Shown: one piece after another, positions 9,857-63,471 of the stretch
How positions within the stretch are numbered: position 1 is the first letter of the stretch
Layout of the letters: each line of letters starts with the position of its first letter
Source: Octopus vulgaris
Taxonomy: Eukaryota
NCBI GenBank assembly: GCA_951406725.2
Contig: OX597818.1
Location: 49,848,001-49,912,000, forward strand
Length of the DNA stretch: 64,000 bases
Direction of reading: 5' to 3'
The notes under the pieces: generated by a model
Databases searched by the model: none
What the model was told of the DNA's origin: nothing
What the model saw: the letters and a program-made list of their open reading frames with translations, nothing else
Program-made: the position numbers and the translations under genes

Positions 9857-9929
9857 TAGCCCATCACCTTCTACCCACATTTTTCCCATCCACATTTTTA
9901 CCATATGAGGCCCTAACAGAATCCGATAA

Positions 9930-10385
9930 TAGGTAATAGATGGATGTGTCAACTGTGGGTGCAGTCTGAGCTGAGATGTGAGGATGTGACAGCACGGTTG
10001 CTTGGGCCAGGGCTTGTTTTGTAGATTCAAAGGCTGAAGTCATTGTACTGTCCCACTCCACCTGTCTTTTTGCACCTTTTTTTGACAATGCCTTGTACAG
10101 GGGCCTCAACACTTTTGCTGCAGAAGAGATGAAGCGATGGTAAAAGTTTACCATGCCCACAAATTGACGTAGAGCCTTGCTTGTGGTAGGGCGTGGAAAG
10201 GATAAGATAGCTTTTAGTTTACCTGGCAGGGGTGTAGCGCAGGCACTTGTGATTCGATGTCCCAAGAAGTCGATTTCTGTCGCACCAAAAACGTACTTGG
10301 CGGGGTTGATTACTAACCCATACTGTTCCAGCCTATCAAAAATAGTCACTAGGTGCTTCTTATGTAGCTCTGCAGATTCTGTGAA
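9930..10385 (-). mobile_element. Ty3/gypsy pol fragment (RT C-terminus, connection, start of RNase H)
   Basis: HLVTIFDRLEQYGLVINPAK..IDFLGHRI..LRQFVGMVNFYHRFI..AFESTKQALAQATVLSHP are hallmark gypsy RT motifs. Truncated on both sides. Confidence 0.9.
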
Positions 10386-12339
10386 TGAAACAAACTAGAT
10401 CCAAATCTTAATCGAATCGGCTTCCAAGATAATAAATGTCTGAACAAATATGTCCTAACTGTTACAAAAGAGCATTTAGTTCCGACGAAAAAGAAAACAA
10501 TAAAGTTTTCCATGTTTTCTTGACACAATCAACAAGGTATTTGTATCTCTTTAAGAAGAAAATTGACTAGGGGTTACTAACAACAACACGCCTCTTCCCA
10601 ACCCTATTTTATTGTAGAATGATTGTTCAACCCCAGTACAAGGTTGGAAGTCATTATTTCTCTTTTTGCAAATAGATTACTTTATCTAACATACTCAATT
10701 TTTTTTTAAGACAGCAGTGTGTGATTTGGGACATTGACAGCTATTTGTAGCAAAATCGAGGGCCCACATACAGAATCCTTCCTTGACAGGCGTATTTTCC
10801 AGTTATCTTTGAAGAACCTATTGTTATGACCTTGTTAGTTACTGTGCATACACGATTCTCTCCCTTGGCGAGACCATGTTTCCCTTTAAAATGTGACTTA
10901 CGCACTTCACTTCGTATTGAGAAAAGTATATATTGTAGAAAATTAACAGCCTACATTTGTTGACACATATGGTATAAAGTATTCTTTTTCTTCTTCAAAT
11001 AATTTCTGTGCTTAAATTGCTTTGTTTTGTCTCACGTTACCGCCTTCATGTTTTTACACTATGACCTACACCGTTTTCAATGTTTCTTTGAAGTCAAATG
11101 TCCCTTTCATGTCCCTTTTATAAAACTATCTGTATATACTACAAAATTTTTAATTTACAATACAATTGTATTGTTAATACATTTTATGAGATATTCATTT
11201 CTAATTGTTATAACACATATAAATATTTGACACATACGAATTGTATATTATGGGGTATTATTCTTTTAGGAAGTTGAATTTTAAAAAATTAATTCCTAGT
11301 GTTTTAATTTAATTGATTTGTTGAAAAAGAATACGGTACAGGATTCCTAATAAATTACACAGTTTAAACCTTCTCCCATCTAATTACGATTCTACTTAAA
11401 CTGAAAATAATTCCAGTCTTTTTGATATAGCTTAATATGATTAGTGTACCGGCATATAGTTGTGCCGAGTGTACCAATATGCAGAATCTAGATTTGTGCG
11501 ACCATCACACTGATTTCTTTCCTCATTTCATCATCTTCACAAAGTATTAAATACTTGTTTCAGTCTTTAGTCGAGCAATTCGCCCCCAGGACTTATTCTT
11601 TGTAAGCCTAGGTACTTATTCTATCGGTCACTTTTGCCGAACCGCCAAGTTAACAGTTGTTGCTTAACCTCCAGTTAACCTGTGATCAAAATTAGTCAAG
11701 ATATAACCATCTTGTGTTGTTAAATGTATCTACTATCCAATGTGTCCTTTCTTTTTAATGATGATGGGGTTTGATTTGAGAAGATTTGGCTGCTATTTAT
11801 AGCAGGTCTGTTGACTTGAGTTTTCACAACCGTTGAATGTAGAAATGTACCCAGCTAACATTATGCCATCCATTTAGCAATAAGATTTCATAACAGCAAA
11901 AAAAAAAACCAAAATAATTTACACATTGGTCTCTAGTGTGAGAAGAAATTTGCCATCAGTGATTCTTCTTGAATTTATTGTTGCATGCAAATAAATAAAC
12001 CTTTGTGGTGTGTTGTCTTAGTGTATTCACAGGTCAGCAGACCTGTGATCTAAGATTTTCCAACCTTGAGCTTCCAGTATTTTTTGCAGTATTTAAGACA
12101 CATCAAACAGTGTTCTTCTCTTTTTGCAAGATAGGAGAGATTAGAGGGAAATTTGACTGCTATTTTCTCAGGTTTGCACACCACACAGAAGTTTCCCCAT
12201 TGGCTCAATCAATCTTCAGGATTTGAAAGGATACAAACTCAAATTCTCCTCATTCAAAAAAATATGCTACTGCTGAGCAACACCCGACTCTATATTTCTT
12301 TGTTTGAAACATTTTTTATTGAAAAAAGATACAGATATA

Positions 12340-19313: not shown

Positions 19314-20687
19314 TCAAAGCTTTTTCAACCTTTTTGTTATTGCAGTTTTCATTTCTTGTACTGAACTAGATTTCATGGTATGAAAACAGCTTTCTCGAAA
19401 TTCTTCATTTGTAGATCTTCGAACAACGTTTGCAATCGATTCACTAACACTTGAAAAACTGTCTTCATTTGTATTTTCCTGATTTGAAGTATCTGTATGA
19501 AAGACAAGATCTGTGAAACTTTCTATTGCTATTCTTACATTTCTTTCATTGGTGTCAAAAACAGACTTCAAGTTGTTATGTAGATGTCCAAGAACATGTA
19601 AGCTCATGGCATGTCTTTTATCAGTATTGTCAAATATTATATAAATAACAACACAAAACTTTTGACATTTCAAAGTATTTCCATTTGTTAGTTGTGTAAC
19701 AAGACATTGTTCTGGCTGTAAAGAACTGTTTCTATTTTCAAAGGAATTATTTAGCAAAGCTTTTAGATTGTATTTCTCCCATGAAATAAAATTTAAAATT
19801 GTATGTGGAAGTTTTAAGGGTTCACCATAGGGACCAAAGGAGAAAAATTCAACTAAATGCTGTTTTTCTCCAGCATCTTCTTCTGCAAGAGGGAAAAGAA
19901 AACCAAGACAAGTCAAAGTAAAGATATTCCGGAAAATATTTTCTTTGGTGGAAATAGTTAAAGATGTTGTAGTACCTATGAAAGTCTTTCCTGAAATATC
20001 ATCTGTCTTACCAGTTTTAGTATTTTGATGTAAACCAATGAGTATTCTTTTATTACACAGTTCAATATAGTTATTAGTAGATAAATCAGGGTTGCATTTG
20101 ATACCTGATACTTTTAATTTATACTTGAATTCATCTGATGGGTTTAAAATTCTTATTTTTTTCAGATAATCAAGAATTTTGCTACATTCACTCAGCATAT
20201 GCGCATGATTTTGGTAGATTCTCAAATACCATGTAGCTTGACTTTGAAGGACTCTGTTGATACTTAGAGAAATTTCACTTAAGTCAGTGGTTTTATTTTG
20301 AGGATTTTTAATAAAAAAATAATTCCTTTGCAAAGCTTGATTGTCATTCAAATGACACTTTTGAATTTGACATAAGTGACTTTCATTTTTAATCAAGGAT
20401 TGCATTCTTTCTACTAAGAATTGCAATGTTTTGATTAATCCTTCCTTAAGATACACAGAAATATCTGAAATACTGCTAATGCAATATAATTTAATTTTAA
20501 ACAATTCTTGTTGGGTGCTATCATTTCCAGTGTTGCATGATTTTATATCAAGGGTAAGTGAAAACTTATCCCTTACAAATTGTTGCTTTTGTTCTAAAAA
20601 TATCATGCGTATTAGTTCTTCTACTGCTACATGAACAGGTAAATCTTCCATTTGGTCAATTCCAACTGCTGCCCATGTCTCAGACAT
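19314..20687 (-). CDS. TOP6BL: TopoVIB-like meiotic protein (SPO11 partner, DUF4554/C11orf80 family), 457 aa, intronless
   Basis: Uninterrupted 457-codon ORF in very AT-rich DNA. The motif order matches the vertebrate TOPOVIBL transducer as I recall it: FSFGPYGEPL (cf. FLYGPSGLPL), ISWEKYNL (TopoVIB WxxY, cf. VDWKKYHL), strand KFCVVIYIIF, and SESIANVVRRSTNEEFRESCFHTM (cf. VNSIMSILTGSTRSSFRKMCLQTL). Confidence 0.82.
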   Translation of the reverse strand: MSETWAAVGIDQMEDLPVHVAVEELIRMIFLEQKQQFVRDKFSLTLDIKSCNTGNDSTQQELFKIKLYCISSISDISVYLKEGLIKTLQFLVERMQSLIKNESHLCQIQKCHLNDNQALQRNYFFIKNPQNKTTDLSEISLSINRVLQSQATWYLRIYQNHAHMLSECSKILDYLKKIRILNPSDEFKYKLKVSGIKCNPDLSTNNYIELCNKRILIGLHQNTKTGKTDDISGKTFIGTTTSLTISTKENIFRNIFTLTCLGFLFPLAEEDAGEKQHLVEFFSFGPYGEPLKLPHTILNFISWEKYNLKALLNNSFENRNSSLQPEQCLVTQLTNGNTLKCQKFCVVIYIIFDNTDKRHAMSLHVLGHLHNNLKSVFDTNERNVRIAIESFTDLVFHTDTSNQENTNEDSFSSVSESIANVVRRSTNEEFRESCFHTMKSSSVQEMKTAITKRLKKL

Positions 20688-21292
20688 ATTTTCTCAGGCA
20701 AATTCTTAGAAATAAATCGTCTGCTACGACAAACGCTGCCTCTCTGACCCACACGAGTTACTTCCCTTGGTCGCTTCTATTATAAACCTATTGTTTCCCT
20801 CTGTTTTATTTGCTGCTACATTGAAGCTTAGCCTCTAGCGCTTTTTCTCACTAAAATATGTTCAAATCGCAATATTTCGATGAATTAAACAGCACAGTTT
20901 CTTAAAATTTATATTACATTAATCTCCAAGGTTAGTATAGTTATGATATTTCATCTTGTTTTTTGCAATGACTATTATTATTCATGAAAATACAATGACT
21001 TGCACGTCGGTTCACAGATATTACATATGGCGTAGAGGATATCCTTGTCCGCCCGAAAATCCTCATGTTTTTCGTTTTGTTTCAATTTTTGTATTTATCT
21101 CTTTAAACTACCTCTTAATTCTTACCAGATATTTTCAATATATCGTTTAAAGATTTCACTTATAGCATTATTCTAACAATATCTTATTCTGAGAAGCCAA
21201 TATATATATATATTATTGAAGGTGTGCTTGAATGTAACATTAATTTATTCAAAATATTCATGAAAATTATTTAAAATTATTTAAATTCAATT

Positions 21293-28126: not shown

Positions 28127-28324
28127 ATTTTTATTAAATTATTTTATATATTATCATTTTCAGAAATATGTATATGTGGAAAAGAGAATTGTATTTATAT
28201 CCCACCCTGCTCTGTTTTTGAAATTATTGTATAATTAATAAACATATCTTTTTTATCCTTCTTGTTCATCTAGATGCAACATTGAACTTAGCTTTCCTGA
28301 AAAACAAACTCCAAAAGACTGAAA

Positions 28325-29880
28325 ATGGCTTCAACAGTCGACAGATTTACTGATGTTAATCTTACTGATTACATGGATGTTGTTACTACATACAAATGCC
28401 GATTCTGTAATTTCTCCTGCAACCAGCCTCAAGAGATTGGTATACACGTTCGTAATGTGCACATCAAGACAACTCCTTCCAAATTGAGTACGATTTCAAA
28501 TATGCCTGATATTGAACAAGCAGAAAGTTCTTCAGGGGATGTCACTGTTGAGGAAGAGACAATACCTGATCTGTCTAAGACCCAGTCTGTAGCTGTTTCT
28601 CAAGAAGCGTCTTCATTGTCAGATGTAGACTCTGTTTCTTTGATTGAAAAATCTGATGCAGGGTCATTGATAGAGTTAGCTTCAAATCATCAACAAGTTA
28701 TTTTCACTCAAGGTTCTTTAAACGAGCCCCAAATGATTCCAACTCACAACGATATCTTATCAACTGGAAATATCGTACCATCTTACATTCCTCTGGAAGC
28801 TACTACAACTGTTGAAGACTCGTTGACTTTTGTTAATGAATCTGAAATTAATTCACAAGCAATTAGTCAGTTTTCTGTTGCTGCTTCTGACGACTTTTCC
28901 GAACCTAATATTGAAGGGGATGATGTTCTTACGAAAGAATTGTTTCTGTGTGGCCAATGTAGAATTGGGTTTAACAGTATTGAAGAATGTAAATCTCATA
29001 TCGTGCAAGTCCACAATATTTTGCCCCACAATGAAGACAATCAGTTACCTGGAGAACCTGTTAATAGAGTCAGTGTTGGAACACAAGTTGTGTCTACCAA
29101 AAAAAAGCCAGGTAGAAAACGGAAAAACCCATTACCTCAGAGATCCTCGTCACCTGTTTCAGACAAGGACTGGGAGGAAGATGAAAATAGCGAATGGTAT
29201 TCACGCAAAGGACGGAGTCGTAGAAAAATTCGCCCACCAAAAGCTCTGAAAGATGATTATTATTTAGGTAAAAAGAAAAGAAAGAACAAAGATACTAATG
29301 TTCTTACAGAAGGCTACAGTCTTAAGTGTAATCTGCAAGGATGTTTTGCCAAGTTTAAGAAGGACCAAAGTTTAAAGATTCACATTGCTTGCCACAAAAA
29401 GGATGCAAATAGGTCTTTCTTTGAGTGTAACATGTGTGCAGTTGAATTTCTTCTTTGGAAACATCTTAGGATGCATCTTTGGCGTTGCCACTCTATTGAT
29501 ACAGATCTTTTTGCATGTGAGAACTGTGAGTTCAAAACAGACACTACCCACAAATTACTGATTCATAAAGAAATTCATAGTGACCAGAGGCCGTATACAT
29601 GTGATATATGCTGGAAAGGCTTTAAGCAGTTCAGTCAGATGAGGAACCACCAAATGATCCATGCAGAACACCAGTCAAATGATGCTGATCGTTGGTATAC
29701 CACCAAACAGTGTGACATTTGTAAACGAACTTTTGCTAATCAGAAGTGTTTAAGTAAACATGTACAAGCTGTCCACAGTAAGATCAAACCATATGTGTGT
29801 TCATACTGTGGTCATTCAACAGCACGTAAAGCTATGCTACAGTTACATCTACGTATCCACACTGGGGAAAAACCATTCAA
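28325..29880 (+). CDS. C2H2 zinc-finger protein, coding exon 1 (817 aa in total, 11 fingers)
   Basis: AAAATGG start after an acceptor ending at 28273. Eight C2H2 fingers, with HSDQRPY and HTGEKPF linkers. Donor AA|GTAAGT at 29881 (phase 2). Confidence 0.92.
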
Positions 29881-30615
29881 GTAAGTAATCTTATAAATCT
29901 CAAAAAGCTTTCAGGCCATTTATAGTTATTCATTTGTATTGCTCTACCTGTTATAAGCATCTGCCTGTGTTCAGTGGAGACTGGTTCTTACAGAAATCTC
30001 ATATTGTTTCCAAACCCTCTTATATCTAGGAGCACTCTGTCGGTTGCAACGACGAGGGTCCCAGGTGATACGATCAACGTAACAGCTTGCTCGTGAAATT
30101 AAATGTGCAAGTGGCTGAGCGCTCCACAAACACGTGTACCCTTAATGTAGTTCTCAGGGAGATTCAGCGTGCCACAGAGTGTGACAAGGCTGGCCCTTTG
30201 AAACACAGGTACAACTCATTTTTGCCAGCTGAGTGGACTGGAGCAACATGAAATAAAGTGTCTTGCTCAAGGACATAATGCGCCGCTGAGAATTGAACTC
30301 ACGACCTTACAATCGTGAGCCGAATGCTCCTAACCACTAAGCCACGCGCCTTCTAGTTAACAGATTAATATATTTTTTATTAGCAAAAAAAATTAAAATC
30401 ATTAAAATGAACATAGTTACACCTGTATCATATTTTTAAGAGAGGAAGTCAGTCTGAGTTCAAATCTCAAATGTTAGAAAGAACCGAAAATGTAAATTTA
30501 AGCAGATATTGACATTGGTAGTTTTTATAATTTCAAAGTTATGTGAGCTTTAATGATTTATTTTCCTTTATATTTAATGTAAAACAATGATGCTCAATAT
30601 TTTATTTTTATTTAG

Positions 30616-31513
30616 GTGTGATGTTTGTCAGTATGCTACTGGAGATCACAACTCACTTCGCCGTCACAAAATGCGCCACTCTGGATTGAGACCATACAAA
30701 TGCCAATATTGCTCTTACTCGTGCATCCAAGCTATTTCTTTAAAAACTCACATGAAAAATAAACATCCTGATTCATCTGGAATTTATCACTGTGATATTT
30801 GTAACTACCGAACGGTAAATGCTACCAGTTTTACTAACCATGTCAGTGATCACAAGTACGGGTTGATTGATGTCCAAGAAGGCACCAACACTACCACCAA
30901 CACCGCCACCACCACCACAACTACCGCCACATTATCAACAACAACATCTACCACCACCACTGAAACAACTACTAATTCAACAGTTCTTTCTTCCAGTAAT
31001 AATAAAAGTATATTACAAAAAGTCAACGACCCTAGTAATGGTGAAATACAAACTCAGTTAGCACCTGTAGAGAACAGTGTTTCAAATCTAAGTGCAGATG
31101 ACATTATTAAAATGGCCCAAACAGGGAATAATCTGGTATCGACGGATCTCACTGCTGCAGAATTAATTTATGCTATTGCAACCAATTCTCTTCCGCAAGA
31201 CTCTCAGATGCTTACTGGGATGCAAGCAACCATAAATACATCTTCTAAACAAGGAATATCAACACACACAATTACTTTGCATTTACCACCATCTCAATCA
31301 CAGATTGCCTCAGATGAAAGTTCTGATCAAAGAAATGCTGGACATACTTTGTTGATGGTGCAACCGTTGGAACTGTGTTCTGTAAATGGTGATGGTAATT
31401 CACAGACTCTGCCTGCTGAAGATATAAGAGTGAATTTTCAACCAGCTGAAAGTTCAGTAACTGCCACAGAAGTAGTTTTGGCCTCAGATGATAAAATTAT
31501 TACTGCTGAGTAA
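30616..31513 (+). CDS. C2H2 zinc-finger protein, coding exon 2
   Basis: Acceptor TTTATTTAG|G restores KPFK-CDVC in frame. Three more fingers, a poly-Thr stretch and a Ser/Gln/acidic tail. Stop at 31513, AATAAA near 31776 and 32043. Confidence 0.92.
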
Positions 31514-36449: not shown

Positions 36450-37500
36450 TCATCATCATCATCATCGTTTAACATTCGCTTTCCATGGTAGCATGGGTCG
36501 GACGATTTGACTGAGGTCTGGTGAACCAGATGGCTGCACCAGGCTCCAATCTGATCTGGCAGAGTTTTTACAGCTGGATGCCCTTCCTAACACCAACCAC
36601 TCCAGGCGGTACTGGCAACTTCTGTAAAGTTAGAAACACTTCATCATCATTTAACGTCTGTTGTCCATGCTCATGTGGGCTGGATAGTTTGACCAGGGCT
36701 GTGAAGCTGGGAGACTGCACCAGACTCAAGTCTGATTTGGCATGGTTTTTACAGCTGGATGCCCTTCCTGACACCAACCACTCTGAGACTGTAATGGGTG
36801 CTATTATGTGCCACTGGCACAAATGCCATTTGCATGACACCAGTACCTGCCGCAGCTACGATTTTCCTTGCTAGCAGGGGTTAGATGATCTGACTGTGGT
36901 CTGGCGAACCAGATGGCTACACCAGACTCCAATCTGATCTGGCAGATTTCTACAGCTGGATGCCCTTCCTAATGCCAACCACTCTGAGAGTGTAGTGGGT
37001 GCTTTTACATGCCACCGGCCATGCTCAAATGGTGCTTTTTATGTGCCACCTGCACAGGAGCCAGTCCAGCTGCACTGGCAACGACCTCGCTCAAATGTTT
37101 TTTCCTGTGCCACCAGCACAAGTGCCAGTAAGGCGATGCTGGTAACGATCATGCTTGAATGGTCCTTTTTATGTGCCACCGGCATGGAAGCCAATTAGCT
37201 GCTCTGGCAACAATCACGCTCATGTGGTACTCTAAGCGCTCCTCTAGCATGGATGCCAGTCATCGAATTTGACTTCGATTTTGATTTTACTTGCCTCAAC
37301 AGGTCTTCACAAGCAGAGTTTAGTGTTCAATGAAGGAAAGGTAAGCATAAGTGGGCTAGTTACACCCCTGGCATAGGCCACAAGGTTATGGTCTCATTTG
37401 GCTTGCTGAGTCTTCTCAAGCACAGCATATTTCCAAAGGTCCCAGTCACTAGTCATTGCCTATGTAAGGCCCAATGTTTGAAGGTCATGCTTCACCACCT
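36450..37500 (-). mobile_element. Stacked RTE-LINE 3' ends, the last reaching the ORF C-terminus
   Basis: Three successive family D segments. 37405-37500 matches the RTE ORF end seen at 48346-48560. Confidence 0.8.
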
Positions 37501-39539
37501 CACGAGTATAAACCAAGTTCCATTAGCAGCAAATTGAAAGATTAACAGGTTGAATTTCAACAAAGTTTTCTGTGAGAAGTGTAGAAGCTAACATTTAGGG
37601 TGTTGCCCTTCAGTTAAGAGTGAAGAAAAATAATGTTTGACAGAGAACAAACCTCAAAATGCTAAATTCTATGCTCCTCTGGGGACTGAGCTTATAGAAG
37701 CCGCTCATAACTTACCTTATGAAATAACTGCTGCTAACACAAAGCATCACCATTTCCTCAGTTATTGGAATTTATCTTACTTTGAAATGTGTTTGAGGCA
37801 AACATTTAACAAATATCAATAGAAACAACCAGTATATAAGTCTGTTTATTGACTTTGTAATTAATTGGAAGTAATTAATAAATTATGAAATAAACTTTTT
37901 AACCGAGATATTTGAGGAAACTCTGAGGTGGCAATTGAAAGCATACTCTCTGGGAAAAGTTTGCCTTCATATAAAAATGGGATGCTATTTGGTTGTAGAA
38001 CAGTGAAATTATAATATTGATCATAGCTGGAGAAGATTAAGTTAAGTATGATTTGATAGGCATCTGTGCAGGTGGCATGTAAAAAAACACCATTTGAGTG
38101 TGGCTGTTGTCAGTACCACCTGACTGGCACGTTAAAGCACCCACTACACTCTCAGGGAGGGCATCCAGCTGTTGAAACTCTACCAGATCAAGATTGGGGG
38201 CTGGTGCAGCCATCTGGTTCGCCAGTCCTCAGTCAAATCGTCCTACTCATGCTAGCATGGAAAGTGGACATTAAACGATGATGATGATAATTTGTCTCAA
38301 GAGGAGAAAATGGTACACCCCATGGAAACCTGTTTCCAACATTACGTAGCAAGCCCTCTGATGGACACCTCAGTGAGACACAAACATGACAGAATAAAAA
38401 CAACCACAGAAACTGAAGCATTGGCAGGTGGTTATACCTTGAGACAAATGCAGTCTCTTGTCAAAGAAAGAGACAGGTGGAAATTTCTTGTTGGTACCAT
38501 ATACTCCTCATGACGTTAAAAGAGAAAGAAAGAGAGATTAAAGAGCTGAAAAAGTGAATAATTAGTTTGGTGAATGCAAAGCATAATATAATTTGAATGG
38601 TAGCTGCAAGGTTGCAGTCGTTTATTTCCAGTAAACACTGACTGAACATAACTATGACCTGAAGCATTGACCAACCCCTCTTTTATTTAAACATAGTGTA
38701 CCTAACATCAGATTATCCAATATATCCTTCTTGTAAGAAGGAAGGATGTAATTTTGGGGTTGGTGGTGAGATTTAGGGACAAGTAGGTTGAATGACCAAA
38801 CAGAAGCCCCTTCACTAGTTCCCTGTGTAAAGCACCATCCATCCGTGGCCGTTTGCCATCCCCGTCTGGCACCTGTGCCGGAAGCATGTAAAAAGCACCC
38901 ACTACACTCACGGAGTGGTTGGCGTTAGGAAGGGCATCCAGCCGTAGAAACACTGCCAGATCAGACTGGGCCTGGTGCAGCCTTCTGGTTTCCCAGACCC
39001 CAGTTGAACTGTCCAACCCATGCTAGCATGGAAAGCGGACGCTAAATGATGATGATGATGATAATAAAAATCATCTAGAGAAAATGGGTGTCAGAAACAA
39101 GGCTAAAAACTATCTTTTCAGTTGTGACAATAGACAGATTTATGAAAAGTCATAAAGATGTCGATAATAGCTTGTTTATTCAGTGGTCGACCCAACACTT
39201 AGTATTGATTCCATCAGTCAATGCTTTGTAGCTACTCTCAAAGAAACTTCAAAATAATAACTCTCTTTTTCTCTCACTCACTTCGTAGCTTTTTTTTATA
39301 TTGTAAGATTTATGATGTTTCCTGTGGTTAAACTAATTTTTTTTTTTAATCACCGTTCCGAAATATATTTTTTTAAACTTTCTTTGTGAACAATTAAAAG
39401 AATTCTATTATGAGGAAGCTGGTTTTCACGCTCCAGATGACACACTAATGACGTGTACGCATGTTTTTTTTTGTTTTTTTTTTGTATGTATAAACAAACT
39501 TTGTAGTTTAACGTAATCTCCAGCGCAGACAACTATTAC

Positions 39540-39782
39540 ATTCATTGACGACTTTCACAATGGCCATTCCTATTTCTCCTATCGTACGATAACAACGTAC
39601 CACATCACACCTTCGACGTATTAACGAAAGTACATTTCCTGGACCCGGAAACGCCAATTCAGCTGTTCAAGGGAGGTAATCATGAGAGAGTTTCCCCCTC
39701 AACCCTTTGCGTCTCATCTTGCGTAACAGAGACAGAAGGAGATTTGACCCTTCAACCAAACACTATGTTTATGAACGGAAAG
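39540..39782 (+). promoter_or_regulatory. Candidate promoter and non-coding first exon of the DHTY zinc-finger gene
   Basis: CpG-enriched unique DNA with ATGGCC, opposed ETS-like sites (TTTCCTG, CCGGAAA) and AAGGGAGGTAATC. Ends in a consensus donor AAG|GTAAGC. The acceptor TTTTTCAG ends at 45852. Confidence 0.45.
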
Positions 39783-42700
39783 GTAAGCTGTCTTGTTTTT
39801 GTCGCATATCTACGTACATATACTTGGTTGTTGTATGCCTAGCTGTCCCTTTCTGCAGCCACAAATCCCTCAAACAATCCTATTCCTAATCTGGGATGTT
39901 ATTTTCTTTGTACTGATGCTTTCTCTCTACAAAACAGTTTTTATTTAGTAATTAACTAAAATGGCTCAATGGATCTTAATTGGATTTCGTTTTCACAATC
40001 CAGATCTCAGTTAACTATATCCTGTTCTTGTTTTTTTTTGCTTAGGTTATCACATAAATTTGACTGGCTAAATTTATACAATTCTATTAACGAAATCTTA
40101 GATGAGTTAGCATTTTTATATTCATTTTAACCCCTGGGACACCGAGTTCTGTTTGTTGTTGTCGCAAAGAAATTGAAAACAAAAATTCAATAGATTTATT
40201 TCAATATTTAATTAAGATCGCCTAATTTCTTTCAAAGAAAAAAAGTTTGAAACTAAAATATAAAATCTTAATTATTTATTTTGTAATATTTCAAAATTAA
40301 TTTAATTAATTTATGAGTTACTTTTCTCAACGAAGTTCAGGTATGTAAAACCACACATTACCCTGTTTAGTACAAAGTCCTTGAATTTTCAACAGGCTTC
40401 GACAGCAGGGCAGATTTCTTCAAAGATAAACCTGCCTTTCTGTGGGATATATATCCTAACAGTGACCATCATCTAGCTAAACCGGACTTACACGTGGCCG
40501 CCACTATTTGTGGCTTCGCATTTTTCGACAAGGTTTCCCCTCCCCTCCAACACGTCATTTTCAAGCTAATCAGTTTCTAAGTTGTTAAGCAAAAAAATAA
40601 CTTGTAACAATTTAGTTTTTAAAGGAACTAATAACGATATATCCACTTCAATTATTTATCTAATATCTTGTGTTATATCTCTTTATACATCATATACCTA
40701 TATTTGGTTACCCTATATTTGTCGAATTATATTTTGTATTCTTTCGGTTTGGTGTCATTCAAAATGTATTATTTTATTTATCGATTAACTTAGTTTATCA
40801 GATTTAAGTGGGGTTTGGGACATTTTATTTCTAAATCTTCGTAACAATTAAGTATGTTTCTTCGTTTTGTTTACTCATGAAGACAACCTCCTAAATATGT
40901 AAAAAGAAAAAGGGTTTGATTTCCCAAATATTTATTCGGTACGTACATTAGAGAGAGGCTGAATTCTCTATATTGTCTATTTCAGTACCTTATAAGTATT
41001 GTTCCTCTGAACTAGTTCGTTGCATACCCCTCCATCTAAGTTCACCCAATACCCCTTATTTTATTTCGCGTCACCTATCCTACGTATTGTTCTTCAGGTC
41101 CCACATTAACCATTATACCTGGGCCTTCACCGCACACCCAGAACGTTTCCCCTGCAGACGTTAACTTGCAGAAATATTCAACTGAACCTTAATCGTACCA
41201 ATGTCATCAGTCATTAAGGGTTTCACAAAGGTCACGAGCTCTACTCTTTCCTCTTATTTAGTATATATCGGGGTTCGATTTGCTTGTTTGCTGATGAAAA
41301 AAGTGCTTTCATGAATTGAACCAATTATCTCTCTTTATATCATCAAATGGCTTTGTACTCCACGCCCAAAGGAATTATTTTGACCAGGCTCCCGTGGCTT
41401 TTATGGGTTTTCCCCCGAGTAACCTTTCGAAGCACCTTCCCCTATTGGGAATTTCAATTGTTATATTTTCGTTGTTATCTCTGGAATTTTTACACCGTTT
41501 TTTGCAAACGGACAAAACCCTTTCTAACTTTCGTCCTGCGTTTTGCCCCTTTATGTTTTAATTAATTTTTGTCAGCCCTTGTGGCCAATAAACGAATTAA
41601 TTATTATTATTTAGTTCTAAGTACAAATGCAGCAGAGGTCGACTTTGCATTTTGGGGTCGATAAAATAAATACCAGTTGAACACGGATGTCCATGTAATC
41701 GACATTCCCCCACCCCTGAAATTGCTGGGTTTGTGTCAAAATTTGAAACCTGAGTTCAAATTCCGCCAAGATCGACTTTGCCTTTCATCCTTTCGAGGCC
41801 GATAAATGAAGTGCTAGTGAAACACTGGGGTTGATGTAATCGATTAGTTCTCCATCACAAAACAATTTCTGGCCATGAGCCTATAGTAAAAAGGATTTTG
41901 GGGCTAGCTGGTAGAATTGTTAGCATGCCAGGCAAAATGCTTAGCGGCATTTTGTCCATCTTTACATTCTGAGTTCAAATTCTGCCGAGGTCAACTTTGC
42001 TTTTCATCCTTACGGTACCAGTTATGCACTGAGGTCGATATAATCGACTAGACCCCGTCCCTCAAAATTTCAAGCCTTGTGCCTAAAGTAGAAAGGATTA
42101 TTATTACTATTGTAAACTTTGTGCCTATAATAGAGACTTTTATTATTTCATATGACAGCCATGGGTTGGCAGAATTATTAGAGCTTTAGACAAAATACCT
42201 TGTATTTCTCCTGGCTGTTTATGTTTTAAGTTCAAATCTGCTGGGGTCAACTTTACCTTTCATCCTTTCAGTGTCAATAAAATAAAATACCAGTAATTGA
42301 AAGAAATACAAAGCTCCTCAAAATAAATAGAGTAATGAAAGGGTTAAAGGGTACAAGCACCCCTCTGTTTCCACAAAAGAATTAACGGAAGATTCATGTC
42401 TTTTGGAAAATGATGTACATTTAGTTATTTACCCTTATAACATCTACTGTATTAAGTCAGCTGACTTTTGATTAAAAGTATTCAAGCCTGATCATCCCAT
42501 CTTCACCCACCCACCAGATGCAGTGTCTAAGCTTACATTATCCAATACATTTCTCCCTATTTTAAGACAGTAAGATGTCTATTTCAGGAAGCCAAATGAC
42601 TGTATGGAGCAGAGATTCTAAACATGAGCAGTACCACCCTCAAGGGGACTCTGGGCATGCTGAAGGGGGTTTTAGGCTTTAGGGGCCAATGAGATAACTT

Positions 42701-45676: not shown

Positions 45677-46012
45677 TTAAATGAGAACTATGCTGAAAAT
45701 AATTAGGCTATCATGGGGCCTGCAAAGCAAGCCTTTACTTTTACTGTTATTGATGTTATTGTTGTTCTTGTTATTGGTGGTGGGGTGTGTGTGTGTATGT
45801 AAAAATGTACCAATATATTTCAATTTCCATTTTTTTTCTTTATATTTTTCAGCCTCAAGCCATTTAATTTAGAATTCTCAAGAATGTGTCTCTGACTGAA
45901 GATATGTATAACGAAGAAAGAAATATTTTTCTAATTAACCTTGCGCTTAAAAAATGAAAGTAACAAAGACTCATTGAATATAAAATGTTTTAAACAAGCT
46001 TTAACCCACATA

Positions 46013-47569
46013 ATGAATTGTGAAGGAAAATCTACTGGTGTAACGAACTCTAAGAAACCTTTACCTAAAAGCAATATCGGAAGACCTATAATGTTTGATT
46101 ACCACAAAAAAAATTTCCCCTTTCAGAGCCATTTAAATAAATATTTTAAAAACCATAACACAGAAAATTCTGGTAAAAAATGTTTTTTGAAGCCATTTTT
46201 TTATTCCAAAGGTCTTTCAAAGAATTTAAAGATACATTTCTTATATGAATGCACTTTCTGTCAAAAACTTTTTGCACATAATAGCAACCTAAGCAGACAC
46301 ATGAGGGTACATTCTGATGAGAAATTGTTCCAATGTAACCTTTGTGAAAAGTCTTTTACATCATCAAGTAACTTAGGTACGCATTTAGGAAATCATTCAG
46401 GAAGCCACATGACGAAGAATCCTTTTAAATGTGGATATTGTAAAAAAATATTTACCAAATCAAATGAACTTATCAAACATATTGAACTGCACACAAAACA
46501 AAATTCTGATCAACAAAAGTCAAGCTGTTCGTTGAAAGCTGTTCCTTCGAGTGAAGGTGGAAGAAGCTGCTCAGGTACAAAACATATTGATGAACAGTCA
46601 GCATCGCCCAAAGGTAACTGTAGTTTTGATCAACAGTATAAACCCGATCATACTTATTGTTTCAATGCCAGCCAGGAGTTGAATGATGGGAACGAAACGA
46701 ACCTACTTGCATTTGGCAACAAAAGTAAGTGCCATTCGAATAGCATTGAGAAAAATCAGTTACAACCTGATCATACATATTGGTCACATGCTAAAAAATC
46801 TCGCCTTTGTAAAAGGAAAGTAAAATCTTCACATTCCAGTCAAGAACCGTCGGTGAATCAATCTGATTCTAACAAGCCCAATATCGAGTCTGATCACACG
46901 TACAGCTCAGGTTGTAGCACTAACATGCTTGGTGATAAGTTACCATTAGAACCTTCAGCTTGTAACAGTGAACTTGTGCCTGAGAAAAATGCAAGAAAAT
47001 TGAAACCTGACCATACGTACAGTATTGGAGTTCATTGTAGCGAAAAAAAGACAAACGCTCAAGAGGATTCGTCTTTGCAGCTTGTACACCATTCTTCTCA
47101 TACAGATAACTGCAGTAATTCTGGGAGACCCATACCTCTGAATACTCAGCATAACCAAAACTCTCAACCAGTGAGTACACCTCTGAAAAAGTCAAGTAAA
47201 AACAATTGCCTTGATCAACCAGTTGAAACCACAGTACATTGTTCAAATATTTCTAAACCCGACCACACATATTCTCATAAAAAAGGCATAATTTCTAATA
47301 TGAATAATTTGAAAACATTTGGTAATAGGTCAGTTAAAACAGACTGGGAGAAACTAAGCTTTACACTTCAAGCTGCAAAAGAAAATCAGCCTTCCTTTGA
47401 TCATACATATTGTTTTGATGCTAAGCTCCAAAAAGAACCCGATGGAAAAGGTACAGATCATACATACTGCCTAGAAGAAGATGATTTTATTTGCTCACAC
47501 AATTGGAATGCAAACATGATGTCTGATCACACGTATTGTTTGATGAATGCCGTTACACGACACTTTTGA
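46013..47569 (+). CDS. C2H2 zinc-finger protein with eight DHTY (HCF-1-binding) motifs, 518 aa from the first in-frame ATG
   Basis: Three canonical fingers (CTFC..HMRVH, CNLC..HLGNH, CGYC..HIELH), then a Ser/Asn/Lys-rich tail with DHTY at 46646, 46769, 46892, 47009, 47261, 47399, 47456 and 47525. AATAAA at 47711. Confidence 0.88.
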   Translation: MNCEGKSTGVTNSKKPLPKSNIGRPIMFDYHKKNFPFQSHLNKYFKNHNTENSGKKCFLKPFFYSKGLSKNLKIHFLYECTFCQKLFAHNSNLSRHMRVHSDEKLFQCNLCEKSFTSSSNLGTHLGNHSGSHMTKNPFKCGYCKKIFTKSNELIKHIELHTKQNSDQQKSSCSLKAVPSSEGGRSCSGTKHIDEQSASPKGNCSFDQQYKPDHTYCFNASQELNDGNETNLLAFGNKSKCHSNSIEKNQLQPDHTYWSHAKKSRLCKRKVKSSHSSQEPSVNQSDSNKPNIESDHTYSSGCSTNMLGDKLPLEPSACNSELVPEKNARKLKPDHTYSIGVHCSEKKTNAQEDSSLQLVHHSSHTDNCSNSGRPIPLNTQHNQNSQPVSTPLKKSSKNNCLDQPVETTVHCSNISKPDHTYSHKKGIISNMNNLKTFGNRSVKTDWEKLSFTLQAAKENQPSFDHTYCFDAKLQKEPDGKGTDHTYCLEEDDFICSHNWNANMMSDHTYCLMNAVTRHF

Positions 47570-47884
47570 ATGTAGAACCCATTCCAGGATTACCCTTGTA
47601 GACATATATAAAAAATGTTAAGGATATATTTTATTGTTTGACATGAACTTGAAGTATATTTGCTCTTTTAAGGATCAAATTTTGCTACGCAAAAAAAAAA
47701 AAATATTGAAAATAAAATCTGGAATTTTTCAAGTATATTTCAATTTTGTTTCTTATTTCTGTTTCAGCAATTTTTTTTTTTATTTTTAAAATCTTTGTTT
47801 GATGAATAATTAATTTTATTTATATTATAAACTCCTTTTATTGTTACGTTCTTAAAATTACCTTATTGTAAATCTTTATCGTCA

Positions 47885-48560
47885 ATCATCATCTTCATCA
47901 TCAGCATCGTTTAACGTCCGCTTTCCATGCTAGCATGGGTTGGATGGTTCGACTAGTGTCTGGGAAGCCAGGAGGCTGCACCAGGCCCAGTCTGATCTGG
48001 CAATGTTTCTACAGCTGGATGCCCTTCCTAACGCCAACCACTCCGTGAGTGTAGTGGGTGCTTTTTACGTGCCAGGCGGGGCTGGCAATGGCCACAATCG
48101 GCTGGTGCTTTTTACGTGCCACTGGCATGGAGGCCAGTTGAGGCGGCGCTGGCAATAGCCACGTTCGAATGGTTCTTTTACGTGCCACCGGCACTGGTAT
48201 CACAACTACAATTTCCATTGATTTTGATCGATTTCGATTTCACTTGCCTCAACAGGTCTTTGCAAGCTGAGTTTTGTGTCCCAAGAAGGAAAGGTATGCA
48301 TTAGTGGACTGGCTACATCCCAGGTAAAGGCCACATGTTATGTTCTCACTTGTCCTGCCAGGTCTTCTCACGCACAGCATATTTCCAAAGGTCTCGGTCA
48401 CTAGTCATTGCCTCGGTGAGACCTAAAGTTCGAAGGTCGTGCTTCATCACCTCGTCCCAGGTTTTCCTGGGTCTACCTCTTCCATAGGTTCCTGCAACTG
48501 CTAGGGTGTGGCACTTTTTCACACAACTCTTTTCATCCATTCTCACCACATGACCATTGT
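47885..48560 (-). mobile_element. RTE-clade LINE 3' end (ORF C-terminus plus complete 3' UTR)
   Basis: GHVVRMDEKSCVKKC..GRGRPRKTWDEVMKHDL..DRDLW is a typical RTE C-terminus. It is contiguous with family D and the (GAT)n tail, which identifies family D as this LINE's UTR. Confidence 0.88.
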
Positions 48561-49759
48561 CAATCACCATTTAAATATGTTGCAGCACTCCTCTTTGCAC
48601 TTATCTTCCAACACACAGTATCTAAACATCTTGTAGCTATCACTGTCTTTACTTCCATTCTTTCCACACATTAACATCATGAAGCTTCTCTTCATTTACA
48701 ATATATATTGACTATATTTTGAATAGTGGTGTTAGCTGAGATAGAATTTTTGAATCCAAAGTATTACAAGGCATAATTTTAGAGCTTAAGATTTTGATCT
48801 CAAATCCTGCTGTAAGTGAATTAAAATTTCATCTCTCCATAGTGAATGAAATAAGTACATATAAAGTATTGAATTTAATTCAGACACGCAAATTTGTGAA
48901 GCGTTCCATATTTTTGCCAGAGCGGCTAACTGGCTTCCGTGCCGGTGGCATGTAAACGGTACCATTCGAGCATGATTGTTACCAGTATCGCCTTACTGGC
49001 ACCTGTGCCAATGGCATTTGTAAAAAGATTCGAGCAAGGTCATTGCCAGTACCGCCTGACTGATCCTCATGCTGGTGGCACGTAAAAGCACCCACTACAC
49101 TCTCGGAGTGGTTGGCGTTAGGAAGGGCATCCAGCTGTAGAAACTCTGCGACATCAAGATTGGAGCTTGGTGCAGCCATCTGGTTCACCAGCCCTTAGTC
49201 ATTCGTCCAACCCATGCTAACATGGAAAGCGGACGTTAAACTATGATGATGACGACTATAAACCTTTCATATAAAACTGACTTTATACATAAGTAAGAAA
49301 CTAATATTGATCACATGTTCGAAATCAGCATAAGAAATGTAATCAATATCAGCTTTATGTTGTGTAAAGTTAGAACAGAGTTCTTTCATACATGCACATG
49401 TTTTTAATTTCCATTGTTAACTATAACATTATTGATTATATGTTTCCATTGGATTAATCCCTGGTTCATGGCATTTCCAATGGTGAGAATAACAAAGAAA
49501 TGTCTCTAACTCAGTGGGCTTATTTTGGTTAGTATTGTTTTTTGCTGATATTTAGAGTCTGGTGTAAACTTGCCATGAAATGTTCTGAAGAATAATCTCT
49601 TTACTTACAGCACAATTTATATTTCTAGGTATAAATTCTGATGTATGTTCATTCATATATGTGTGATGGATTATGTAGCTTTGCTTATTTAACTAACATA
49701 CATACATATAAAACAGCTGTCCACTAATGGAATAAACATCTGTTCTTTAATTTCTCTTA

Positions 49760-57785: not shown

Positions 57786-58267
57786 TCTGAACTCTACTAA
57801 CACAAACGAAGTAACTTTGCTCAACATACAGCGAAGAAGCTGACGGAAATTTCATACAGTATATCCAACGTAAAATAGGGGCGCATAAAAGGACTTTGTA
57901 TCAAGAAACCTAGCCAAGATCTGATATACTAATGCTTCGAATTGTTTAGTAGACCCTTGGTTGGTTTCGCCGTTGATGTTTGTTTTAATTACATTTATCT
58001 ACGTTAGGAGCAAGGAAACTGATTATTTTGTGTGTGCCTTCCAACTAGTTGAAACAGTTCAATTCGACCTTTCACGACCTCTGTCTCATAACTCGGCCAC
58101 TTAACAATCAGGACAGGAAAAGGTTTGTCTAGGCAGCTGCGTCCTACTTCTCAACAAGTACAGCAACAGAGAAGATCACAGTTTAGGGGGGTCTAAATTC
58201 CTCACCACCATCACCTTTACAATGCGAGAGTACCAACCATCGTCTCACTTCAGCACCACCAAAACAG

Positions 58268-58291
58268 CAACTACTACTACTGCTGCTGCTG

Positions 58292-58343
<52 letters not shown>

Positions 58344-58362
58344 AACTACTACTACTACTACA

Positions 58363-58398
<36 letters not shown>

Positions 58399-58411
58399 GC
58401 TGCTGCTGTTG

Positions 58412-58452
<41 letters not shown>

Positions 58453-58464
58453 GCTGCTGCCACC

Positions 58465-58511
<47 letters not shown>

Positions 58512-58528
58512 AACTACTACTGCTGCTG

Positions 58529-58566
<38 letters not shown>

Positions 58567-58604
58567 GCCACTACTACTACTACTACTACTGTTGCTGCGG
58601 CTAT

Positions 58605-58649
<45 letters not shown>

Positions 58650-58705
58650 CACTACTACTACTACCACCACCACCACCACCACCACCACCACTACTACTAC
58701 TGCTG

Positions 58706-58768
<63 letters not shown>
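58268..58768. repeat. Compound trinucleotide microsatellite (ACT)n/(ACC)n/(GCT)n, about 500 bp
   Basis: Directly visible. It explains the poly-T/S/V/L ORFs in the track. Confidence 0.97.
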
Positions 58769-59648
58769 GGCCCGCAATTTGTCACACGCACAAATATTTT
58801 TTCACTAGCCATTTCAATGCGGTCAGAGAAGCTTACAAATGCTTTTTAGCAATCAAGCATTTTTTTTTATATATGCCGTTAAATACGTATACAGATTTGG
58901 ATCACTTGACTGAATTATGAAATTTTATAAACGTTTGCAAATAAACATTTTTATGTATAATGAAATACAACTTTTTTTTTTTATTTTCCTTCAATTTAAT
59001 CGATACATTTGTTCACATTGACGACTTCATCCACATTCACAGTCGTTTATATTGGAGACACCTTGTTCAATAACGTTTACTTTCGGTGACCTACATACTC
59101 AACGTTTACAACGGGTAATCCCGTATTTAAAACTGGAAAATCACAACAGTTTCTACAACTGCTCGTGTACAAGAAGACTAGAAGCAGCAAACAATAAGAA
59201 CTCGTGAAACAGACTTTCTCTAATTCATGGAAAAAATTTTCCGAATGTGTGGAAGGTTCTTCAGAAAGCAATTGATAACTTCTGATGTCTAAATGGGATC
59301 TTTACCTGTTGACGTACAGATTTAAAAAAACAATTTTTTGTTACTAAAGATCCGTCTAATTGATTTAATTAGCTGTGAAGGTCCCACCGAAAACAATAGC
59401 AAGAGAAAGAACAGGTGGAGAAGTTCAGAGCGCTATTAATTCTGCAGCGATTCTGTCTCCGGGAGACATTGAGGTTAAATGACGTGGCTATTTGCTGCAG
59501 ACAACGTGTGAAAGCTGGGAAATAAAATGAAGCAAGCATATTTGTTTAAAATGTAATTTTAGTGTGCATGGATTCATAGTTCTGTCCTGTTTCCTTTTTG
59601 TGTGATAAACTTTGTGTTTGTATGAGCGTGTATTTATTTATATGACAA

Positions 59649-60286: not shown

Positions 60287-61223
60287 TTCTTATTTCTTTA
60301 TTGCCCACAAGGGGCTAAAAATAGAGGGGACAAACAAGGACAGATAAAGGGATCATGTCGATTACATCAACACCATTGCATAACTGGCACTTAATTTATC
60401 GACCCCGAAAGGATGAAAGGCAAAGTCGACCTCGGCGGAATTTGAACTCAGAACGAAACGGCAGACGAAATACGGCTAACGCATTTCGCTCGGCGTGCTA
60501 ACGTTTCTGCCAGTTCGCCGCCTTCTTATTTCTTTATTGCCCACAAGGGGCTAAACGTAGAGGGGACAAACAAGGACAGATAAAGGGATCATGTCGATTA
60601 CATCAACACCATTGCATAACTGGCACTTAATTTATCGACTCCGAAAGGATGAAAGGCAAAGTCGACCTCGGCGGAATTTGAACTCAGAACGAAACGGCAG
60701 ACGAAATACGGCTACGCATTTCGCTCGGCGTGCTAACGTTTCTGCCAGTTCGCCGCCTTCTTATTTCTTTATTGTCCACAAGGGGCTAAACGTAGAGGGG
60801 ACAAACAAGGACAGACAAGGGGATTAAATCGATTACATCGACGCCAGTGCGTAACTGGTACTTTATTTATCGACCCCGAAAGGATGAAAGGCTGAGTCGG
60901 CCTCGGCGGAATTTGAACTCAGAATGTAAAGACGGGCAAAATGCTGCTAAGTATTTTTCCCGGCGTGCTGACGTTTCTGCTAGCTCGCCGCCTTAATGAT
61001 AATAATAATCCTTTCCATTATAGGCACAAGGCCTGAAATTTGGGGGGAGGGGGCCAGTCGATTAGATCGACCTCAGTACACAACTGGTACTTAATTTATC
61101 GACTCTGAAAGGACGAAAGACAAAGTCGACCTCGGCAGAATTTGAACTCAGAACGTTAAGACAGACGAAATAATGCTAAGCGTTTTGCCCGGCATCTTAA
61201 CGATTCTGCCAGCTCGCTGCCTT
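60287..61223 (-). mobile_element. Head-to-tail run of four family A SINEs
   Basis: Complete units at about 60287-60522, 60526-60757, 60760-60992 and 61008-61223. The first two share private variants (GGGATCATGTCG, CAACACCATTGCAT), which implies local duplication. Confidence 0.85.
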
Positions 61224-61264
61224 AATGATGATGATGATGATGATGATGATGATAATGATGATAG

Positions 61265-63471
61265 TGTGCCAAAATGGAGAGCTGTACTAACATCAGGCCA
61301 AGATAAGCTCGGTAGAGTCAACGTAAGTAGGGGAATATTCCAAGGTGATAAACTCTCACCACTGCTATTCGTGTTTGCCCTTATCCTTCTTACATTGACC
61401 CTGAGCAAGGTTAAATCATGCTACGAATTTAGCAGTGAGGAGAAAATAAACCACCTCTTGTTTATGGACGACCTGAAATTATTTGCCAAAAGTGAGAAAG
61501 CTTTAGATTCACTGCTACAGACTGTTCGAGCTGTGAATGGTGATATTAGTATGGAGTTTGGAACAGATAAAGAGAGGGAAAATATATTCCAAGTCAGAAG
61601 GGATTATAGGGAATGAGGGTGACCGTTACGAGTACTTAGGTGTATTGGAGGCAGATAACACTCTCTGCCAAGAAATGAAAGATGTGGGAACCGAATATCT
61701 CAGGAGAGTGAAAAGAGTACTAAGCTCAAAATTAATTAGAAGGAAAAACATCTCTGCAGTAAACGCATGGGTAGTCTCTCTAATAAGATATTCTGATAAT
61801 TACCTGAACTGGACTAAAGAAGTGTAGTGGATCTTGCAAGCATGAAGTGGATTCGATCCACCATAGCCAAATTTAAATTAACACGGCAACAGAAGTTTTC
61901 CCACGGTGGATCAATGGTTTTTCTGTGACAGCAGTTTTGCATTTTCCAGATGCCTCTAGCTAGGCCGAAATAATGTCTTCACTACTTGACCCTTTCTAAC
62001 CTCTTCAACTTTAACAAAAGCTAGAATAGAGATAACAAGATCACCAACTAAATCTACTGTTCCCAATGATATCATAAAAGCAAGAACACCCCAAGCAAAA
62101 ATCAGTCGGTGACTACTCAACGAGTTCAGCCACATGGTGACGACTCAACCAGTTAATCACTCGGAGACAACGAAGTCTGGCTGACCAGCTAGAACCTTGG
62201 TCAGAAGGAGAAATGAAGTTTACTGTTAGCAACTATGAGACAACGTCTCACACCCTACAACTCTCACTAGCTCTAATTTTGTTCTCTTACAACATTCTAT
62301 CTCTCTCTGTAATTACTACTAAACAATGAAGAGGACCCAAACACAAACTTTACTTCGCATGCTTTTGTATTTATCATAACCTGCCCGTCGAGGCAAGGTA
62401 TTGTAACGTAACGGTAAATAAATATTTCCTTAAAACTTCATGTATTGTCCATCTTCCACATGTTACAACTTGCCGTTATAGCAACAAATTTTTATCGTTA
62501 CAACTGTTGACTCTGACATTTCATAATATTGTTTATAAATCAATTTCTCCCGCAACAGAAGAATTAAGAAACAGATTGTAAAATTAGGAAGACACAGTTC
62601 ATGTACCGGTCGTTATAACTCATAGGCAGGGTCGATAGATTATGCCTATTACAGAAGTAGGTGGGAGAGGTCTGATATCAATAGAAAACTGTGTAGAGAT
62701 GGCAAAACAAACATACAAGAGTATGTACGAAGCAATCAAGAAGGAGCAATTTCAGCTGTGAGAGGAGAGGAGGCAGAAGACGTTGGAGACGGCAACGGAA
62801 TACACGGAAAGAAAGCAGGAGCGAGAAAGAAACATCTGGGGAAAAGAACAACACGACCAGCATGCTAGACAGACACAGGACGTCGCAGCAAAGGAGTCTT
62901 GGTTATGGTTGAAGAAGGGAGACCGTAAGAAGCATACAGATTCATAATGGCCGCTCAAAGCCAGTCGTTGTGGACGAATATCATTATGGCCATAATAGAC
63001 AAATCCGCGGAAAGTGCAAAGTGCAGACTATGTAACGAGAAACAGTAATCTGTAATGCACATAATAAGTTTCTGTAGTCCTTTGTTGGGTATTAATGCAC
63101 AGAATGATCGCGAAATAAATGCCAGAGGACCAGATATTATGGTTCATGGCAAGGGTGAAAAGAATGCACCATCATAAATATGCCTATATCTACAGACATG
63201 AATCTATCATCAAAGAACAAGAAAAAATAGGAAAATACCAGAATTTGGCTTAAGGAAATATGACGACTCTTTTACTTGTTTCAGTCATATTTGACTGCGG
63301 CCATGCTGGAGCACCGCCTTTAGTCGAGCAAATCGACCCCCAGGACTTATTCTTTGTAAGCCTACTACTTATTTTATCGGTCTCTTTTTGCCGAACCGCT
63401 AAGTTACAGGGACGTAAACGCACCAGTATCGGTTGTCAAGCGATGTTGGGGGGACAAACACAGACACACAA

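Follow-up and report, generated by a model that had tools for sequence, protein, structure and literature searches.

The co-regulator HCF-1 is bound through a short linear motif, [D/E]HxY, which we take to be the ELM class LIG_HCF-1_HBM_1. CREB3/LZIP uses the very word DHTY; no paper on that use was found in the literature searched. Krox20/EGR2 is reportedly a C2H2 factor with such a motif. The KRAB domain of other C2H2 proteins is a folded-on-binding domain that is common to hundreds of paralogues and represses. The [D/E]HxY pattern has been described as the HCF-1-binding motif (HBM) (PMC13631171; PMC5644247); these and the other papers given below by identifier are cited for those parts of their text that were available. 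HCF-1 has one motif pocket, which is contested by dozens of transcription and chromatin factors, and its output depends on motif affinity (10.64898/2026.03.19.712392). Competitor peptides for HCF-1 are anti-proliferative (PMC13061025). THAP1, THAP3, THAP7 and THAP11/Ronin combine an N-terminal zinc-dependent DNA-binding domain with an HBM that recruits HCF-1 and OGT, activation by Gal4-THAP3 is HBM-dependent, and THAP4 has two non-canonical HBMs (PMC13631171). The zinc finger proteins ZBTB38, ZNF704 and ZNF518A have been named as HCF1 binders (10.64898/2026.03.19.712392).

The locus described here lies in a window of 64,000 nucleotides of the Octopus vulgaris genome (the whole stretch of DNA that was analysed; positions 49,848,001 to 49,912,000 of contig OX597818.1, assembly GCA_951406725.2). 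It is a single-copy C2H2 gene with an uninterrupted coding region on the forward strand (46013..47569; 518 amino acids plus stop). In the HBM proteins VP16/UL48, CREB3/LZIP, KANSL3, DIDO1, SETD1A, E2F and PGC-1, as far as their available descriptions go, the motif has the same three anchors, small middle residue and uncharged residue after the tyrosine (Y+1) as in the octopus protein, and it likewise lies in a part of a transcription factor that is predicted to be disordered. These known partners are described with one motif, whereas the octopus protein has eight conserved copies per chain and its relatives have eight or nine. The octopus protein resembles THAP factors in having a zinc-dependent DNA-binding domain N-terminal to the HBM, but THAP factors have a C2CH domain, one HBM and a dimerising coiled coil, whereas here the domain consists of C2H2 fingers and the valency lies within one chain. 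Krox20/EGR2, ZBTB38, ZNF704 and ZNF518A are likewise finger proteins tied to HCF-1 by a short motif; our tail, representative and profile searches found no orthology to such factors, and the available text of the literature searched reports no motif array for them. The KRAB/KAP1 system likewise joins C2H2 fingers to a module that docks a co-regulator. The octopus protein differs from it in having an array of linear motifs and no KRAB match, in being the product of one single-copy gene, and in that the array is absent from the paralogues sampled.

The gene was already predicted in three species, under the names 'zinc finger protein 184' (XP_014781270.1), 'zinc finger protein 429' (XP_029636805.1) and '429-like' (GAB1598794.1), which reflect generic finger similarity and are silent on the tail. 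The literature searched held no report on the motifs of this gene or on any HCF-1 motif array, no paper joining cephalopod C2H2 zinc fingers with host cell factor, and none on DHTY by title; subscription journals lay mostly outside its scope, and other multi-motif proteins may exist.

The stop-to-stop frame (45935-47569, forward strand) comprises 544 codons, and its first ATG at 46013 opens the 518 amino acid protein, which is identical to database protein P0008. It differs by one residue from Octopus sinensis XP_029636805.1 and by 17 from O. bimaculoides XP_014781270.1. When the distant relative P0004 was searched against this genome, the window's C2H2 locus was the sole return at E values up to 1e-25, and the end of the tail had no significant match in the genome beyond the same locus. 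As both searches give one locus only, the DHTY-bearing gene is single-copy in this genome. A pyrimidine tract followed by AG (45828..45852, forward strand) is the likely splice acceptor of the coding exon. Four ATGs (45884, 45904, 45954 and 45985) occur between this site and the start codon (region 45853-46012), and they may open upstream reading frames that damp translation. The sole AATAAA in 47570-48600 (47711..47716, forward strand) is a possible polyadenylation signal. A CpG-rich stretch at 39001..42000, with no strand assigned, may hold a promoter and a non-coding first exon, putatively those of the C2H2 gene; its observed/expected CpG ratio is 0.74-1.03, compared with 0.21-0.37 in 37001-39000, and it contains a GTAAG donor-like site at 39783. 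TGACGT and CCGGAAA elements are also present in this island-like stretch. A sequencing-run search for the gene listed no RNA run as containing the sequence.

A sequence-only reading of the window had proposed three zinc fingers, and three C2H2 fingers were found in the reading frame 46013-47569 (PF00096, three stretches, E = 1.3e-14, above the cut-off), fitting a tandem C-x2-C-x12-H-x3-H pattern. The first intact finger (46250..46312, forward strand, as are all features of the protein given below) has H, S, N and R at helix positions -1, 2, 3 and 6, as do six of the seven proteins listed. The corresponding residues are S, S, N and T in the second finger (46334..46396), with S, S, N and Q in distant relatives, and K, N, E and K in the third (46430..46492). 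Upstream of these, at 46094..46156, is a degenerate first finger in which both cysteines and one histidine are gone. In the distant proteins P0004-P0006 the alignment and finger lists show an intact C2H2 finger here, their fourth, and Pfam marks four finger stretches in P0004 and P0006. Judged by alignment, this fourth finger has decayed in octopods and is intact in the distant relatives. The interval 46094-46240 contains two decayed finger-like units ahead of the three intact fingers, and the second of these lacks its cysteine pair but has the block YSKG-x-SKNLK-x-H conserved throughout the six-protein alignment. The fingers are 92% identical to those of Argonauta and 65-67% identical to those of three distant relatives, with the base-reading residues mostly kept. 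The conservation of the fingers and their recognition residues suggests fixed DNA targets, and we infer that the protein uses these three fingers to bind one fixed site on DNA. None of the 15 Pfam matches of the window's protein at E values up to 1 is a KRAB family, and the same search gave no THAP (C2CH) match.

Beyond the fingers extends a tail of about 355 amino acids (46502..47566) that is predicted to be disordered, is 21% serine plus threonine and has no Pfam match. All eight DHTY copies claimed from the sequence alone were recovered at the same places, with the same codons and spacings (41, 41, 39, 84, 46, 19 and 23 amino acids) and in one frame. Motif 1 (46646..46657) is followed by C and is invariant in six of six proteins, while motif 2 (46769..46780) is followed by a W that is kept in all relatives. 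Motifs 3 (46892..46903), 5 (47261..47272) and 6 (47399..47410) were placed from the sequence and the six-protein alignment, as was motif 4 (47009..47020), after which the spacer holds a ninth, labile motif in distant relatives. In each of the five proteins measured, motif 7 (47456..47467) comes 19-20 amino acids after motif 6; motif 8 (47525..47536) comes 22-26 amino acids after motif 7 and precedes a conserved C-terminus that ends in R-H/N-F. A better notation for the motif is DHTY[C/S/W], and P often precedes it (four of eight in the window's protein).

When the 354 amino acid tail was shuffled 100,000 times, [DE]HxY was absent from 94,039 shuffles and occurred once in 5,810 and twice in 151; none had three or more copies. 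DNA repeat analysis of the gene found no long tandem unit, only short families centred on the motif codons (D1-D3, D5 and D12). AlphaFold2, with an alignment of only six sequences, gave pLDDT values under 50 over residues 190-544 of P0001, with one short helix, and the motifs are thus predicted to sit in an intrinsically disordered region. The ESM Atlas gave no usable match by features, and its structure matches all had TM scores under 0.3. Two further conserved elements were seen in the six-protein alignment: a block I-x-C-S-x-x-W/L preceding the last motif, and the C-terminus V-[T/S]-R-[H/N]-F (47543-47569), possibly a terminal docking or degradation signal.

The tail search returned five clusters of relatives among 1,452 candidates. 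The named relatives are all octopods (O. bimaculoides XP_014781270.1, O. sinensis XP_029636805.1 and Argonauta hians GAB1598794.1), the Argonauta protein being 69% identical to the window's protein. P0004, P0005 and P0006 are 38-40% identical to it and have nine motifs; because of this sequence distance we tentatively read them as more remote cephalopods, perhaps squids or cuttlefish. As P0004 returns only this locus and the gene is single-copy, P0004 is best read as its orthologue. Each of the 21 full-length relatives counted has eight or nine motifs (two fragments, 47 and 255 amino acids long, were excluded). The ninth motif lies in the long fourth spacer of the distant proteins and is labile, being GHTY in P0014 and P0016 and DHIY in P0006. 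No relative beyond the five clusters was found among 1.84 billion representatives, in the profile search or in the ESM Atlas, which does not prove absence. The tail matched five of the representatives, namely P0003, P0004 and three Ig/PKD-repeat proteins; the last three were rejected as unrelated chance matches without [DE]HxY. The profile built from the six-protein alignment recovered all five clusters of the family, plus eight generic finger proteins that lack the motif (2,435 candidates of length 277-1105 were scored, and distant or fused forms may be missed).

Motifs and spacers have evolved very differently. Among the six aligned proteins, 32 of 32 motif positions are invariant, compared with 19 of 261 in the spacers and 50 of 84 in the fingers (motifs against spacers, Fisher p = 8e-30, the six sequences not being independent). 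Identity to the three distant relatives is 100% in the motifs, 65-67% in the fingers and 17-23% in the spacers, and so the test set in advance, in which motifs that were not conserved in orthologues would have counted against the idea, was passed. The first gaps range over 36-86 amino acids, showing that spacer length is free, which is what one would expect if the tail is a tether that carries short linear motifs. Measured against the 12-nucleotide majority word, the eight copies in the window differ at 12 bases, all of them third positions and all synonymous. The earlier claim that the peptide and not the DNA is conserved is borne out by this pattern, and together with the invariance of the motifs it indicates that the DHTY peptide is under selection.

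The match to the HCF-1-binding consensus, also proposed beforehand, holds for all eight copies, which fit [DE]HxY within the predicted disordered tail. Such a match is weak on its own, since only 66 of 347 human D/EHxY peptides from disordered regions bound in an HCF1 screen (10.64898/2026.03.19.712392) and THAP5 has an HBM yet did not co-precipitate with HCF-1 (PMC13631171). We compared the flanks with the rules given for HCF1 ligands, using the verbal rules in the available text and not the scoring matrix of that study (10.64898/2026.03.19.712392). In deep mutational scanning, D/E, H and Y tolerate no change; the middle residue is small, Y+1 is uncharged, Y+2 is not proline and H-4 is often hydrophobic (10.64898/2026.03.19.712392). 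Five non-redundant proteins supplied 43 motifs, of which 42 have T in the middle; Y+1 is C in 27, S in 11 and W in 5 (charged in 0/43), and Y+2 is never proline (0/43). The motif begins with D rather than E, in agreement with the ligand rules as available. Position H-4 is hydrophobic in 20 of the 43 motifs; in the window's protein the count is five of eight against a background of 19% (binomial p = 0.008), and in relatives the enrichment is weak (3-4 of 8-9, p = 0.07-0.20). W at Y+1 is disfavoured in some peptide backgrounds (10.64898/2026.03.19.712392), and motif 2 carries this W in every relative. The fit of the flanks appears good, though not decisive, and the DHTY motifs are putative HCF-1 ligands. 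A complex prediction of the octopus HCF Kelch domain (P0027, 1-356) with residues 512-544 of P0001, run without alignments, gave a score of 0.03 and a mark of 0.34, which speaks neither for nor against docking. DHTY was absent from those supplements of PMC13061025 that were available as text.

The octopus genome supplies a candidate partner. An HCF gene lies on contig C4, with exons that cover Kelch_HCF positions 3-337 and match the octopus HCF protein P0027 at 91-100% identity. Other Kelch proteins in this genome gave weak matches in the Kelch_HCF search. The octopod HCFs P0027-P0029 contain no match to a pattern for the HCF-1 cleavage repeats, of which a fish HCF-1 has five; this is in line with invertebrate HCFs in general, which are not known to have such repeats. 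In alignment with vertebrate sequences, the octopus Kelch domain shows 68-79% identity. P134, which we take to be a residue of the HCF-1 motif pocket, S202 and R228 correspond to octopus P123, S191 and R217; the first two are present in all 47 sequences compared and the third in 46 of them (numbered on P0133, whose cluster contains mammalian HCF-1 records). S202R (10.64898/2025.12.28.696747) and R228D (PMC13061025) are both reported to disrupt the pocket. By this alignment, the genome encodes an HCF with conserved Kelch pocket residues. In a pull-down with a single DHxY peptide, HCF1, HCF2 and OGT were the top enriched binders (PMC13061025).

We consider it likely, with a probability of about 0.62, that the product of this single-copy C2H2 gene recruits the co-regulator HCF-1 in a multivalent way while tethered to DNA. 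In such a mechanism, the three fingers would bind a fixed DNA site and each DHTY would occupy the Kelch pocket of a single HCF-1 molecule, in the manner of the [DE]HxY motifs of THAP proteins, KANSL3 and VP16. The long, variable spacers would allow several HCF-1 molecules to be bound at once, or one to be held by rapid rebinding. Spacers of 36-86 amino acids could easily separate neighbouring propellers. Gaps of 19-20 and 22-26 amino acids measure about 65-90 angstrom when extended; at these last two gaps a neighbouring HCF-1 may still be accommodated, or rebinding may be served. One DNA site would gather an unusually high local dose of HCF-1 and its partners OGT and TFIID, and the likely outcome would be strong activation of target promoters through the links of HCF-1 to TFIID and OGT, and the Ser/Thr-rich tail would probably be O-GlcNAcylated. 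To judge from its spacings (41, 41, 39, 84, 46, 19+23), the array most likely arose when a unit of about 40 amino acids was duplicated internally, after which selection would have held the motif only. In the case of MYC, motif-mediated binding of HCF-1 does not bring HCF-1 to chromatin (PMC7793627), so HCF-1 binding need not mean chromatin recruitment. A bolder version, which we think less probable than not, is a cephalopod-restricted HCF-1 hub that gathers up to eight or nine HCF-1/OGT complexes per chain and either cross-links them with further chromatin partners, as a condensate-like activating cluster on the promoters it targets, or determines how much free HCF-1 a given cell type has.

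Three other explanations of the array itself deserve consideration. The protein might act as a sponge or buffer that withdraws up to eight HCF-1 per molecule from other partners and so reduces free HCF-1 in expressing cells, the fingers merely localising the sink. Titration of the pocket works in principle, as peptides with one HBM displace 101 interactors from HCF1 in human cells and make the cells proliferate more slowly (PMC13061025). Eight copies also exceed what known single-motif factors need for recruitment, and the four ATGs before the start codon could limit dosage. We nevertheless regard a sponge as unlikely, because fingers this well conserved (92% in Argonauta, 65-67% in distant relatives) suggest fixed DNA targets. 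It is also unusual for a transcription factor to reach the levels needed to titrate an abundant cofactor. About equally unlikely is that DHTY[C/S/W] is the ligand of another beta-propeller or adaptor, such as a Kelch-type ubiquitin ligase adaptor for which the array would be a multivalent degron, or that it is a metal-binding unit of Asp, His and Cys. The near-invariant T (42/43) and the frequent C at Y+1 (27/43) are tighter than a generic [DE]HxY or an HCF-1 ligand needs and could mean another or more selective partner, and the weakly matching Kelch proteins of the genome are candidates for that role. Against these readings, D, H and Y are exactly the positions at which HCF1 ligands are intolerant of change (10.64898/2026.03.19.712392), and the anatomy of the window's protein is that of a nuclear factor. 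Sixteen of the 43 motifs have S or W at Y+1, which makes Cys a frequent but not a required ligand; the spacing varies over 19-86 amino acids, no fold is predicted for the tail and the ESM Atlas held no structural look-alike. It is hardly credible that the repeat matters at the DNA level, for example as a target of the fingers that this gene encodes, or that it is just a neutral leftover of tandem duplication. Spacings that cluster near 41 amino acids do suggest duplication, and short DNA repeat families exist, but the motifs stayed at 100% identity while the spacers fell to 17-23%. As all eight copies are in one frame and all 12 base differences are synonymous third-position changes, a DNA-level motif is excluded as the conserved thing, provided that the distant proteins are correctly aligned.

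The sequence-only reading had further cast the array as an effector module for cephalopod C2H2 proteins, which lack the KRAB/KAP1 system. In its general form, this idea would make HBM arrays the shared module of the expanded family and a replacement for KRAB. Cephalopod C2H2 genes are greatly expanded, with 1,453 C2H2 sequences in O. bimaculoides, and the available text of the 2025 survey that describes this names no effector module, containing no mention of HCF, effector or motif (PMC12513265). Our counts run against the idea. From 89 other loci of this genome, taken from 150 of the 178 matches to this gene's fingers, we collected 97 non-redundant ORFs with at least three fingers (11 cut by the end of the locus; 22 with at least 150 non-finger residues), a sample of finger-bearing reading frames and not of separate exons. 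Outside the fingers, [DE]HxY was absent from 95 of the 97 ORFs, occurred once in two and twice in none, and shuffling of the 14,043 residues gave an expectation of 1.5 against the two observed. The DHTYC-codon pattern had 137 matches in the genome, and the sole cluster among the 100 listed is this gene. A two-motif DNA pattern had 304 matches; the 100 listed were, besides this gene, mostly tandem or dispersed DNA repeats, with a few isolated in-frame pairs such as C5:135775812. The eight other finger proteins from the profile search also lack the motif. With the gene single-copy and two motifs in none of the 97 ORFs, the module did not hold up as a family trait. On these counts the array belongs to one gene and not to the C2H2 family, the family-wide version being already contradicted for finger-bearing exons, and we consider a general KRAB replacement very improbable.

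That eight or nine motifs were retained, with spacer identity down to about 20%, suggests that the HCF-1 system has valency as a tunable variable besides affinity. DNA-tethered recruitment of HCF-1 would be a testable function for one of more than 1,000 cephalopod C2H2 genes that are uncharacterised, and the conserved pocket makes an assay directly possible in human cells. If the hub version were true, no multivalent scaffold for HCF-1 would be known from nature before this one, and the protein would offer a ready-made valency series on how HCF-1 dose sets transcription. The motif array leaves the cephalopod C2H2 expansion as a whole unexplained.

The window holds several other features. A second, unrelated multi-exon C2H2 gene lies at 28301-31513 (forward strand); its one DHKY uses a zinc-ligand histidine and is unlikely to be a free HCF motif. 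Reverse-transcriptase-like retroelement fragments were recognised by eye at 9864-10394 (reverse strand) and 61146-61616 (forward strand), as was a trinucleotide repeat tract of about 650 bases at 58105-58920. Two neighbours are usable for synteny, namely a ribosomal protein L36 family gene (PF00444; 13365-14054, forward strand) and a gene for a DUF4554 protein (19314-20693, reverse strand), presumably a TOPOVIB-like meiotic protein.
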